This document shows, in pieces, positions 23,131 to 28,189 of a stretch of DNA of 64,000 bases. The first letter of the stretch is position 1; each line of letters opens with the position of its first letter. Source of the DNA: Perna viridis (Eukaryota); the NCBI GenBank assembly GCA_037379345.1, contig CM074512.1, forward strand, positions 34,348,001-34,412,000, given 5' to 3'. The notes under the pieces are model-generated. The model did not search any database and was not told the DNA's origin. It was given only the letters and a program-made list of their open reading frames with translations. A program made the translations under genes and the position numbers.

Positions 23131-24415
23131 ACAGTTTTCAAAATTATGGGTGAACAATCAATAGTTGAATATTTCGAAGCCTCTATTTGGAAAAGTTTCT
23201 CTGTATGATTTATGAAGACAAAATATACTTGAATTATTCTCTCATCATGTTAATCAAAGAGGGAAACGGCTGTAAGATAAAAATATAACATGTAACTAAG
23301 ATATATTTCTTATTCAGACGTCCTCTTTATCTCGACGGTCAATATTTGTGCTTTGCTTCGCTTTTTCCTCTAGTGCTTCCTCTTTTGTAAACTCAGTCCA
23401 AGTATTAAGACTTTTTATTTCACGTTAACTATATTGACGACTATTCCAAGCGAATTAAAAATAAAAAAAAGTTATTTCAGGCTGAATATCTGCCTTTTGT
23501 ACTATGTCCTTGGTAGAAGAAATTGATTTTTTCAGTTTTTTTTTCGGTTCACTGTAAAGTGTAAGAAGACACGACTTAGGATGTACTGGAGGAAAGAGCT
23601 ACTTAAAGTCCTTCAAAAATCCGTTATCTTACGCTCAACATTAAGATTTTTGTACTAATGTTGTCAAGAACCCCTGGTTACTCAGAGTGATTCGTTGTCC
23701 TAATTTATTGCTCTTTTTACAGATAACAACTCTCATACTTCAGTTCTACACTGATTAAAACCGTTTTAAACACATACACGTGTTTATCCAGTCGTAATAT
23801 TTTGTCATCAACATGCTCTTCTGTATGCTTTGGCATTCTAATTTGACCAAAATTATAAGAATTTCTATAAATTACATAATTTGTTCTGCTCATTTTTAGT
23901 ACTGTGTATTTTAGCTCGTAGTCATTCATTGCGACTACTTAGCTGATTTTTTTTTGTGTCAACGGTTGCGTATTGTCAACATTGTTTGAAACTTTCAATT
24001 GGTATTTTAACGGATGTGAGTTTGTTTGAAAATCTTGGTTACAAATAAAATTTCTTGTTTAATTGTTATAATGACTACAATTTAACATTACACGAACATT
24101 TCTGTAATAAATCTATCGGTCAGACTTTTCTAATTGGTAAAAGTATGGATATACCGTTACGCTGATCTTGACCCTTTCGATCCATACCTGATTAATTATC
24201 ATGCTTGTAAAAACAAGCGAAAATTAGAATTCAAAAATATGCCGCAGCCCTTTTTTTTTATAAAAATCCCAAAATAATGAAAAATATAGAAAAAACAAAA
24301 CATATAAATAATGACAACTTGAAGGTTTTATTTTAATGAGAACAGAAATGACTAAGACAAATACCGAGATTTGAAATTTCTAAAATTACGACTCTTATAG
24401 GGGACGGAAATGCCT

Positions 24416-24632
24416 TTAATTGCCTCGGATATTGTCAATAGTGTCTGAAACTCTTTCTCTTGCTCCATCTAAGGCTTCACCACCAAATTCAGACACCCTG
24501 TCCCTAGCATTGCTGAGTTTGTCACTTATATCATCTCCAAGATTATTCAGATGCTCTCCCAAATTATCAAGATGTCCTCTTACTTTAGAAGCAGCATTAT
24601 CTAAATGGTTTCCAACCTCATCAGCAGCGTTT
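24416..24632 (-). CDS. secreted peptide coding exon 3
   Basis: NAADEVGNHLDNAAS...IDNIRGN*; polypyrimidine tract + CAG. Confidence 0.88.
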
Positions 24633-26226
24633 CTGAAAAAAAATTATTTCATCTGCATTTTAGGGAATACGTTCGTATGATTCTTCAGGAAGGCTTCAGG
24701 TAGTAGTTTTGTTATGTTTTTCTCAAAGATAAACACATAACAATACTCACTTAAGATATATATTGCATTTTCGTGCTGTAACTAAGACATTTATCCATGC
24801 ACCATGCAAATCAAGCGATTTAATTTAGTGTTTCGTGACAGGGTCTATATAGTTTTTCAATATTCAAAACAATATTAAAAATGACATTTTTTTGCACGGT
24901 AAACGAAATTTTAACAAAAAATTAAGTATTTTCGGGGAAAGTTGTTGATAACATAACTATAAAACAAGGACTAGAGCTACATCCGTTCTACTGTATGGCA
25001 ATTCTGTCGTACTTTGAGCTCTTAGATTTCCATAACAACGCCAAGTTCATCAAACCTCTCGAAATGTGATACTTTCAGATTAAACAAATATCAAGCCTAG
25101 CAAAATGTTTTTGAAAAAAACTCAAAAAACATGTAATCATACTTACTCAATTTTGTCTCCTACGTCATTAAAAAAGTCACGTGCCCTATTGAAGAAATCC
25201 CATCTCTGAAATTGTACATTATTATTGTTATTCAGCTAAAATCTAAGCAGGCAGGTGTATGCTGTTGATTTTGAATACGTTTATTATTCACGTAAAAAAG
25301 TAATTTAATGATATAATGCCTGGGGTTCAAAGAAAAAAGATTAGCGAGTTCATCATTATTTGTGTATACGTAAAACAATATCCTGGATACAAACCGATTA
25401 TACTTCTTGCTATAAAGTTCGAAAATATAGGAAAAAGATCGATTATTGTTGGTGAAATAAAAGCAGATTTGCTATTGTTTACTCAAAATGCTTAGTTAAC
25501 ACGATTGTCCATTTTTAAGTACTTCATTGATATGTCAGTAGTAATAGGGACAGAAAACCTCATAACGGTAATCTTTTCGGATTTTTAACTTGGACCTTAG
25601 AACCACTGAGGGTCTGATTTCATTCTGACAGAAAGTGATCTGCTGGGCTAATACCAATCGGGGAAAAAATGCAATCGGAACTACTCAGCATTTCTCATTT
25701 ACACACAGAATGTTTTAGTGTTACGAAATGGTCGCGTAGTTCCGGTTGAACAAAATTAGTGTAAGGGAAATGACCGAGCAGTTCCGATTGTTCATTTACT
25801 GACAATTCGGTCCACAAACAAGTGGTTTCAAGTCTACCAAGACAAAGGACCACATCAAACGTATCTAATACGATAAGTGATATATATCTGTTGATAAGGC
25901 CTCCTTAGGCACCGACAACTTTCGTCCTTTGATTTGATGTCAGATACGAATTTTTTCTACGATGGCTTTTATTTTTTAGACTGCTGTAAAAGATACGAAA
26001 CTAAAAAACATCTTTGCTTTGTATTACCCTTGGTATTACAAGTTCACTTCACGTCAGACTGAAAGAAGGAGCTCAGTGCTTCTACGGTCAAAGGTTAAAC
26101 TCGCATTGATTACCATAATAAGGACTCGTCCTCTTTAAATACCTTTTGTCTGTGTGCAGGAAGACCAAGAACTAAATCCGAAGCCAAAACCAAGAGAACA
26201 ACACCAAATGCAAGAGTTAACTTCAT
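24416..26226 (-). CDS. Secreted prepropeptide, 119 aa, Cys-free amphipathic 11-mer repeat; uncharacterised
   Basis: Exons 26143-26226, 25147-25205, 24416-24632 with GT-AG junctions and matching phases: MKLTLAFGVVLLVLASDLVLG LPAHRQKR WDFFNRARDFFNDVGDKIENAADEVGNHLDNAASKVRGHLDNLGEHLNNLGDDISDKLSNARDRVSEFGGEALDGARERVSDTIDNIRGN*. AATAAA at 24327-24332 (-). Confidence 0.88.
25147..25205 (-). CDS. secreted peptide coding exon 2
   Basis: RWDFFNRARDFFNDVGDKI(E); TTCAG/GTAAGT. Confidence 0.87.
25589..25841. mobile_element. degenerate MITE in an intron of the peptide gene
   Basis: Imperfect TIRs cttggaccttagaaccact / agtggtttcaagtctaccaag; internal IR aatcggaactactc / gagcagttccgatt. Confidence 0.5.
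26143..26226 (-). CDS. secreted peptide coding exon 1 (signal peptide + pro)
   Basis: MKLTLAFGVVLLVLASDLVLGLPAHRQK; acceptor at 26241, donor GTATTT. Confidence 0.87.
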
Positions 26227-26285
26227 GTTCCGGACTTTTCCTGAAAATGTTAATTTAAATACAGATATTGGTTGGTTAAAAGCTT

Positions 26286-26810
26286 AGCCGCCCCGTGCAG
26301 GTCCGGATGACAAAAGAATAGGCCTGCAGCAGCGCTAAGCTTGTCATAAAAGGCGACTAAATAGTGCTCAGAAACCTAGCCGGGGGCTATGCGCTCTGCC
26401 CAGAGAGCAAATGGGTTGTGTGCCCCAGGTAGTGTAATGGGGTATCCCTGGCGTGTTACATGCTAGGGTTGTCAGGCTATAATACGGAAAACCTGACCGC
26501 AAACCATAGTGGTGCAACGTGTTGGGAAAGATGCCACGTTCCTCGTACGTTAAGGAACCCTTCTGTGGTATTCTCCCGGAGTAGGAACCATAGGGCTCCG
26601 CCACAAGAGGCTGAATTGCATTGCCGACCCTACCCACCTCTTCCTATTTCCAGTGGCAATCAAAATTTGTCGACCCCATATCCTTGTATCCCATCCTATT
26701 TTTCATTTCATCATCATTTCATGTTCATTTTATCATCCATTTCATGTTCATCGCCTGAATATAGCTGAAATATTGCTGCTCCGGCGTCAAACCCCAACAA
26801 TCAATCAATC
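26286..26810 (+). mobile_element. structured SINE-like retroposon with LINE-type 3' tail and (CAAT)n end
   Basis: GC-rich multi-hairpin body; tail atagctgaaatattgctgctccggcgtcaaaccccaacaatcaatcaatc; flanks taaaagctt / taaaaactt as a near-TSD. Confidence 0.75.
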
Positions 26811-27759
26811 ATAAAAACTTTAAACGAAACTATTTTGATTTATGTCCAGATCTTACTTGTTCGGAGTAGTCCAGGTGAACAAAGAAATATAAAAATAATG
26901 GTGTTCACACAATTTCAGGACAGTTGGATTAAGTTACTTAAGACTCTCAGAACCTTTTTACACTGCATTCAGGTGACAAAAGATGGAATTAAGTCGAGGA
27001 TAATTAGAAATTCCACTTTTTAACACCAATGTAATGATACTCAATTATTTTCCATAAAAATAACAAGTTTTTATATGATATATTCGGTATTGCTCTTTAA
27101 ACAGCGAGACCGGCTTAGCACATGATTTTAGTTCTTGAATGGTGAAAAATATTCCATTCCACGATCGTTTTGGAAAGAGATGATGTGGGAATACTGGTAC
27201 AATACTGAATTTAATATTGTGAAATATAAAGGTATATGAATTGACAAATGAAAATAAGTTTTCCCGTTTTGATAGCTAAATGTACTTTGTTGCTTTGTTA
27301 TAATGGAAAATATCAATAAAATTAGAATTAGTAATGATGAATTGAAGTACCTACACATGTGGTGCGATATTGTTATAAAGATTCAATGTTAATAACATAT
27401 GTTCGGAGGACCAAGGCTTCATCAATATCAAAACTAAGAAAACGACACTGGAATGTACACTAATGATATTAGTTGTTAGTAGAGTCTCGGTTATCCGTTT
27501 ATGTCTTTAGTGTCCGTATGTATTGTTTTAGTTATTTTTAGTTATTTCAGTGGTTCGTCTGTCTTGTCTCCAGGGTAATGAATATTATGCATGCTCCTCG
27601 TTCTAAATTATGGTATCCTTGTTATAACTTTCTAGTAAAAAAAATCACTACATAAATGACTATCAATTTTTAAGATTTCAGCGAGTAAAATATTTTTTTA
27701 AATACGCCTTTATATAAGAAAAAATAGCCACTAACAGCAAAAGTTTTAAAGTTACTTAC

Positions 27760-27828
27760 CACTTCTTAACTTGTCTGAACCGGTTTAAGTATAATTATTT
27801 GTAGAATGAAAAATTTTGATCTTATATA
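27760..27828 (-). promoter_or_regulatory. putative TATA box and short non-coding first exon of the secreted-peptide gene
   Basis: TATATAAG at 27821-27828 (-) and donor GTAAGT at 27754-27759 imply a ~35-nt exon splicing to the acceptor at 26241. Confidence 0.55.
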
Positions 27829-28189
27829 GTCACCTAACGTGATACACTATAGAAATGTTAGTATTTGCTTCCGTTCAAGCGACTTGAACTTTGCCATCCT
27901 CTGCGGATGAATGCAAAGAGTAAGTGGTAATTAGAGGCTCCCAAGATAATCCTGGTGGCCATCTGTCGGCTTATCTAAAGGATCATTAATTTGTGTCTAT
28001 TGAAATATACTTCCAGTTCGTCAGAGTGACCAAATTTTAAGCAAATAACTACAAAAACGTCATTTTCACATTACTCGAACAAGGCGTATTCCTTTTATTA
28101 CAATCTTATGGAGTTGTGTAGGTCCTATCAAAAGCATTATTTCATTCGTTGAAAGTTTCTTTCTATTTGTTATGGTTTGATTTTGTCCC

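Follow-up and report, generated by a model that had tools for sequence, protein, structure and literature searches.

LP-SINEs are retroposons in which a LINE-derived head replaces the tRNA head; their first ~70 bp match the 5' ends of the LINEs Nimb-17_LMi, I-3_DR, and RTE-9_CPB, and this segment has been proposed to act as a promoter (Matetovici et al. 2016, PMC4758252). Section 10 of the same paper draws an analogy between the LP head and the ribozyme of L1Tc (Pr77/L1TcRz). HDV-like ribozymes of this kind (Pr77/L1TcRz, R2, RTE) resemble the LP head in occupying the first ~77 nt of a LINE or of a short derivative and in having a sharp 5' end, according to the available text of PMC4758252 and PMC5786205. 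Orthoflavivirus xrRNAs are 3'-UTR elements and frequently occur as tandem copies (PMC13556198). Class 3 xrRNAs stop Xrn1 at the 5' base of their P1 stem (10.1101/2024.12.17.628992), and a 2021 review treated cellular xrRNAs as still to be found (PMC8374639).

We analyzed a 64,000-nucleotide stretch of Perna viridis DNA (contig CM074512.1), hereafter the window, that carries an element of this kind. The LP-SINE element type is already published (PMC4758252); here we describe a predicted fold of the LP head and its occurrence in viruses. The available text of that paper proposes a promoter and gives neither a structure nor a viral occurrence, and we found no description of the LP-head fold or of viral copies in the open literature.

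An LP-SINE copy in an intron

The region from 26286 to 26810 is the GC peak of an otherwise AT-rich window. An earlier note on this DNA had read it as a GC-rich retroposon insert with a microsatellite end, and copies of the same family elsewhere in the P. viridis genome bear this out. The window copy is a non-autonomous non-LTR retroposon on the plus strand, spanning 26290 to 26810, and is 94.1% identical to the family majority sequence, the lowest value among 30 copies compared with their majority sequence (range, 94.1 to 98.6%). Searching the 723-Mb genome for the element gave 6,151 candidates; the 40 of these that were scored were near full length, the 39 besides the window copy being 91 to 92% identical to it. 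Exact-word counts gave 7,828 head 19-mers and 13,343 tail 24-mers, so that the family numbers more than 13,000 copies by its tail words.

The starts of these copies are sharp at a G (G1), which in the window copy is G26290, not 26286. Positions 1 to 3 are the start in 55 of 60 copies chosen by an internal motif, and positions 1 to 4 in 17 of 30 copies chosen by the tail (the window copy included) and in 22 of 53 bystander copies with a tail, the others scattering in both of the latter sets. The bases upstream of G1 are background, with no conserved sequence in 144 flanks. Target-site duplications (TSDs) of at least 8 bp were present in 74 of 104 copies having both ends (median, 14 bp), and in 58 of the 74 the duplication stops exactly at the first G or takes it in, with no donor flank carried along. 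The near-TSD reported earlier for the insert is, by contrast, decayed: its arms (left, 26277 to 26289, plus strand; right, from 26812) match by eye at 8 of 13 positions, and the 4 bases preceding G26290 mismatch.

As the earlier note had stated, there is no pair of A and B boxes at the 5' end of the element. Rfam at E-value thresholds gave no match to the window region or to 10 family loci, and ARAGORN at a relaxed threshold returned a single spurious match, which spanned joined ends. The earlier note had also named a tRNA or 5S head on full-length copies as the sign that this copy had simply lost its 5' end. Background bases stand where such a head would be, and, because the starts are sharp and the TSDs end at the first G, the element is not a tRNA- or 5S-derived SINE truncated at its 5' end. 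It is non-coding and has TSDs and a terminal microsatellite, and its start matches by eye the "Nimb-17 homology" block in Supplementary Fig. S2 of PMC4758252, that is, the ~70-bp 5' homology to a Nimb-17_LMi-type LINE. The LINE-derived head in place of a tRNA head, the TSDs, the microsatellite end, and a mollusc-type tail are all shared with the LP-SINEs of that paper; the body is different, and the family is absent from the lists in the available text. We concluded that the element is an additional member of the published LP-SINE kind.

The element lies in an intron of a minus-strand host gene, antisense to it. Assembled contigs from two of four runs join position 26241 to an exon near 27760, which places the intron at 26242 to ~27759, upstream of an exon (26143 to 26241, minus strand) with a start codon at 26226 and a signal-peptide-like N-terminus. 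Thus, of the proposal that the insert is antisense in intron 1 of a peptide gene, the orientation, the intron, and the signal-peptide-like start stand, and it is likely that the intron is intron 1. The gene (24364 to 27900, minus strand) has exons near 27760 and at 26143 to 26241, 25147 to 25205, and 24364 to 24632, with a downstream exon built of short repeated units. A splice donor guessed near 26856 was unsupported by the contigs. The window copy is a decayed passenger within this intron.

Behind the head, the body (26369 to 26690, plus strand) has hairpins that are common to the family by descent, and a short signature within it (26544 to 26560) resembles the Snail/Nin-related domain of the PMC4758252 supplement. 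The tail (26691 to 26810, plus strand), with its (CAAT)n end, resembles the 3' terminus of an intact P. viridis LINE with APE, RT, and RNase H domains, scoring 103 versus 61 ± 6 (maximum, 79) in 500 mononucleotide shuffles, although AT-richness and the shared microsatellite inflate this score and one LINE family was compared. That LINE is young and ~6.07 kb long (loci L422 to L429; e.g., C6 ~15556800 to 15562870, minus strand); the copies at the eight loci fetched are 98 to 99.8% alike and encode an ORF1 of ~490 aa and an ORF2 of 1247 aa with endonuclease, RT, and RNase H. Copies of the SINE are densely clustered, dozens per 200 kb, at ~3.33 to 3.53 Mb of C1, and often flank copies of this LINE. 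Nimb LINEs have been reported as partners of bivalve SINEs (PMC11481361), and the ~6.07-kb LINE is a plausible, if unproven, candidate partner of the SINE described here.

The predicted fold of the 79-nt head

The first ~330 nt of the insert had been described as a series of consecutive stems. All of the named stems can be drawn in the window copy, but the fold does not rise above shuffles: 26286 to 26620 gave a z of −1.28, with 11 of 100 shuffles equally good, and subregions gave z values of −0.5 to −2.3 on the plus strand, the best of them (family positions 81 to 215) folding equally well on the opposite strand. A proposed pseudoknot, ATGACAA/TTGTCAT, has 7 of 7 pairs in the window copy versus a mean of 5.86 in 29 other copies and so comes from private mutations, as does an inner stem, GTTCCT/AGGAAC (6 of 6 pairs versus a mean of 5.03 in other copies). 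Because the body folds no better than shuffles and these stems are products of private mutations, the argument that G-U-rich stems point to structure at the RNA level is weak for the body.

The sole part with support across families is the head (26290 to 26368, plus strand), a conserved structured domain (the LP domain) common to LINE 5' ends and RNA-virus 3' UTRs. Sequence comparison predicts an H-type pseudoknot, then a stem of 3 bp, a further pseudoknot that is optional, and finally an invariant hairpin. P1 pairs 26292 to 26295 with 26304 to 26307; in the window copy, a change at 26307 has broken one of these pairs. One unpaired U (26296) precedes PK1, a 7-bp pseudoknot stem (26297 to 26303 with 26321 to 26327) in which all seven pairs change on both sides; the linker that precedes its 3' strand ends in AGAATA (AGAAUA in RNA) at 26315 to 26320. 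P3 has 3 bp (26328 to 26330 with 26339 to 26341), and its first pair is seen as A-U, C-G, U-A, and G-C. PK2 pairs the loop at 26331 to 26337 with 26362 to 26368 and is supported in retroposons (z, 3.1), not in viral copies (z, 0.8). P4 (26343 to 26361) is a near-invariant hairpin with a 7-nt loop, which we take to be T-loop-like, followed by TAA; its invariance is partly forced by the search patterns, and a private change at 26346 breaks one pair in the window copy. The earlier note has neither the pairing of 26292 to 26295 with 26304 to 26307, which belongs to the pseudoknot supported here, nor P3. Its broader proposal of a mobile structured RNA with a non-tRNA 5' module holds in that the element is mobile and structured and the module probably defines the 5' end; the extent of the module is 79 nt, not 330.

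Support for these pairings comes from swapping partners among 21 heads, hand-picked by eye (one or a few per family) from the about 140 matches listed and parsed with a limit on linker length. PK1 formed 5.81 of 7 pairs with its own partner versus 4.03 with swapped partners (z, 6.6), P3 formed 2.48 of 3 versus 1.66 (z, 5.2), and PK2 gave a z of 3.5 over all heads; these z values are not probabilities, since the heads are related. In the viral heads (n = 6), PK1 formed 6.83 of 7 pairs with its own partner versus 4.3 with the partners of others, and PK2 was not significant. The parsed heads have a P1 of 3 to 8 bp, one unpaired U in 20 of 21 cases, and a linker ending in AGAATA in 18 and AGAATT in 3. 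Linker length ranges from 1 to 17 nt in this set and reaches about 50 nt in other families (L069, L089, L110, L126, and L180 carry an insert of ~50 nt between P1 and AGAATA and keep both pseudoknot arms). An alignment of 22 heads, fitted by the model to PK1 and P4 and not to P1 or P3, had 92.4% of 370 cells paired versus 74.7% in shuffles and a covariation of 0.518 versus 0.182, with slid controls at 0.05 to 0.13. The head stems thus covary, and the absence of covariation that would have told against the earlier reading was not observed. The scallop head in Supplementary Fig. S2 of PMC4758252 aligns by eye with 26290 to 26368 and has P1, PK1, P3, and PK2 changed on both strands.

The earlier note could not fit the insert to HDV or hammerhead ribozymes, and the LP sequences fail our descriptors for both as well. 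Like an HDV-like ribozyme, the LP head has a hairpin, then C-U-A-A and a closing stem, but it lacks the order P1-P2-P3/L3-P1.1-P4. Our HDV descriptor, built on that topology, matched none of 15 LP sequences with a P2 of at least 6 bp and gave one weak 5-bp match, to the family majority sequence. Core patterns for hammerhead, twister, and pistol were absent in 16 of 16 sequences, and Rfam was negative. In the pistol ribozyme, as in the LP head, the loop of a 5' hairpin takes part in a pseudoknot and an A-rich linker comes next; the LP head differs in having no P2 insertion ahead of the 3' strand of the pseudoknot and no Rfam match, and cleavage of the pistol type, close to the 3' end, would take off the head that copies retain.

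The HDV descriptor does match the head of the ~6.07-kb LINE, which is not a validated control. The first ~145 nt of this LINE differ from the LP head and have no Rfam match; they fit an HDV-like topology in which a large insert of several hairpins precedes the predicted catalytic C, a fit that the descriptor also gave to 3 of 200 shuffles. At ~114 to 139 of the head of one copy (L427), compared with 26343 to 26361 of the window, the closing bases and the TAAA that follows are identical, and the 7-nt loops are similar. This likeness between the last hairpin of the LINE head and the LP core hints that the two heads may have a common ancestry.

Occurrence of the head in other elements and in viruses

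An 18-base core pattern matched at least 122 metagenome loci, and the AGAATA linker lies upstream, with at most 1 mismatch, in 109 of the 123 matches listed; these belong to many families with different bodies. At L371 the LP head opens a LINE (from about 2980) with an ORF1 and an ORF2 carrying an APE-domain endonuclease. One family (L078, L122, L130, L144, and L149) has the LP head directly upstream of a tRNA-like head, as in the scallop MESC SINEs; L097 has two tandem LP heads at one retroposon locus (436 to 606), the first lacking part of P3; and L134 (489 to 585, minus strand) has a divergent head, scoring 42 bits, with an altered linker and a longer loop. A search of the P. viridis genome for other families with an LP head gave 64 matches, all of the same family as judged by their matched letters. 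Rfam had no match on 15 motif loci.

In IMG/VR, the complete fold was present in seven of nine matches, and six of the seven carriers are RNA-virus contigs representing five distinct genomes. L197 has an RdRP_4 domain, L199 an RdRP_3 domain with a nodavirus-type capsid, and L201 an RdRP_3 domain; L195 and L200 are one virus from two samples with the same junction and a Peptidase_A21 capsid; and L193 has a coat S domain and a 1217-aa ORF with no Pfam hit, so that its class is one we infer. In all five genomes the motif is on the coding strand and follows the last stop codon at a distance of 6, 10, 23, 75, or 101 nt; the contig end is 88 to 184 nt away, and no ORF of 100 aa comes after the motif. 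In L193 a second tandem copy is cut off by the contig end, and PK1 has 7 of 7 pairs in both copies. The seventh carrier, L196, is a 212-kb DNA virus in which the motif is intergenic, 122 nt past one gene and 153 nt ahead of the next. These six distinct viruses all come from patterns that require the core. Looser viral patterns found no further virus (of 125 first-half matches, only the known loci pair 7 of 7), and a phage collection gave one chance match only. A model built from retroposons alone scored the full viral motifs at 40 to 68 bits versus at most 27 for core-only chance matches from 100 sources.

None of eight matches in GTDB is a credible prokaryotic copy. Three lack the fold, and L366 and L369 are short MAG contigs, judged without context. 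L368 (1 to 560), L370, and L371 are animal-like repeats or a LINE within scaffolds filed as bacterial and are likely host contamination or misassembly in bacterial records.

The start of the viral 3' UTR, where the motif lies in all five RNA-virus genomes, is an xrRNA-type location. As described in the available text of PMC8374639 and 10.1101/2024.12.17.628992, xrRNAs of classes 1 to 3 resemble the LP head in being compact, pseudoknotted RNAs that open a viral 3' UTR and in occurring in tandem, with a halt at the base of P1 in class 3. In xrRNAs the 5' end is encircled by a ring of about 15 nt that a pseudoknot closes, and of these two features the pseudoknot has support in the LP head. The LP head is set apart from these classes, by those descriptions and by the lack of an Rfam match, in having an H-type pseudoknot first, then P3, the optional PK2, and the invariant hairpin. 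It has no three-way junction, in contrast to flavivirus xrRNAs, and, unlike the xrRNAs described there, is found in animal retroposons. Thus, the LP head is xrRNA-like by place and outside the described classes by structure.

Possible roles of the head

RNA viruses have no DNA stage, and therefore a DNA promoter cannot be what they keep; the pairing that they do keep implies a role of the motif at the RNA level. The proposal of Matetovici et al. that the head is an internal DNA promoter, which if it were the whole explanation would make the viral copies passive captures of host RNA, draws support from the position of the head and its purine start, and LP heads can replace tRNA heads or precede them (PMC4758252 and the L078 family). 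We nevertheless consider a promoter alone improbable in view of the compensatory changes in the stems, the range of linker lengths, the intact pairing and constant location in RNA viruses (samples L195 and L200 share their junction), and the lack of convincing TATA enrichment upstream of 140 copies (TATAWA counts of 8, 10, and 5 per 10-base bin at −50 to −21 versus 0 to 9 elsewhere); a dual role as promoter and RNA, as in Pr77, is possible. The fold might instead be a binding site that does not define an end, recognized by a host factor (for translation initiation, RNA stability, or export), a replicase, or a reverse transcriptase. Tombus-like viruses have cap-independent translation enhancers in their 3' UTRs (PMC6299227), and the motif precedes long ORFs in the L371 LINE and in the DNA virus. 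Such a site seems unlikely to us, given that non-coding SINEs of many families keep the fold, that it sits at the extreme 5' end of the elements, and that the carrier viruses have unrelated polymerases.

Whether the motif heads an element or a viral 3' UTR, the RNA downstream of it must stay intact, which fits an exonuclease block or a ribozyme that cleaves on its 5' side. Our tentative preference, a reading that we would put just short of an even chance, is that the 79-nt head is a candidate xrRNA-like block to 5'-to-3' exoribonucleases that would fix and protect the start of the element. In the five RNA-virus genomes the motif lies where such a block would be expected, with a tandem copy in L193; the elements begin where class 3 xrRNAs halt Xrn1, at least as described in 10.1101/2024.12.17.628992; the retroposon-only model recognizes the viral motifs; and the GTDB matches include no true prokaryotic copy. 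Self-cleavage just 5' of G1 by a ribozyme of new or rearranged fold, which would free the element from read-through RNA in the way that HDV-like ribozymes serve other LINEs, is in our judgment a less probable but serious contender. An exact purine start with no donor flank suits it, and the 58 of 74 TSDs at the first G fit cleavage or a transcription start at least as well as they fit a roadblock; in three families the first base is a purine, 6 nt ahead of the unpaired U. The head also occupies the slot of Pr77/L1TcRz, by the analogy in PMC4758252, and in that same slot the ~6.07-kb LINE has its HDV-topology fold, with the predicted catalytic C in a hairpin-C-U-A-A context like that of the LP core. 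On the other hand, the HDV, hammerhead, twister, and pistol descriptors fail, Rfam is negative, the 3' half has no HDV P3/L3 loop, and a cut of the HDV type would lie within the head, a part that copies retain. Ribozymes are known in UTRs of linear RNA viruses, but the cases detailed in the available part of PMC13725137 are 5' UTRs; a cut behind the last gene of a linear virus would cost it its 3' end, and the tandem heads of L193 and L097 likewise speak against cleavage. A roadblock, in turn, has to contend with a secondary structure unlike those described for xrRNA classes 1 to 3 and with the small number of viruses (six distinct, found with core-dependent patterns), in one of which, the DNA virus, the motif is intergenic. 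Viral copies keep no purine at the place of the element's +1, and this, together with a P1 of 3 to 8 bp, is easier to reconcile with a mechanical block than with cleavage at a fixed site. The location in viral 3' UTRs makes an exonuclease block somewhat more likely than self-cleavage.

If the head is such a roadblock, the element, which has no pol III promoter, would be transcribed within host or read-through RNA (here, that of an intron) or from a start of its own. Xrn1 or Xrn2 would trim the uncapped RNA and stall at the base of P1, leaving a stable RNA with a single defined 5' end; the protein of a LINE would then bind the tail and insert the RNA copy, the enzymes likely being those of a Nimb-like LINE of the I superfamily. 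In viruses the same block would leave a non-coding fragment of the 3' UTR, as known xrRNAs do.

Since 2016 there has been no explanation for the ~70-base head common to LP-SINEs and to insect, fish, and turtle LINEs; its covarying fold and its place in viral 3' UTRs point most of all to a stop for Xrn1 or self-cleavage. Either of these, if true, would mean a further class of RNA: xrRNAs beyond viruses in the first case, a new ribozyme in the second. We think it probable that the head represents a new class of compact, 5'-end-defining RNAs, whether as the first exonuclease roadblock of cellular mobile elements or as a new self-cleaving ribozyme, and that it has been exchanged among the LINEs and SINEs of animals, RNA viruses unrelated to one another, and a large DNA virus, letting promoterless retroposons carve their RNA from host transcripts. 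If so, it would account for more than 13,000 copies with exact 5' ends in a SINE that has no pol III promoter and would provide a short natural 5'-end module for RNA-templated gene insertion.
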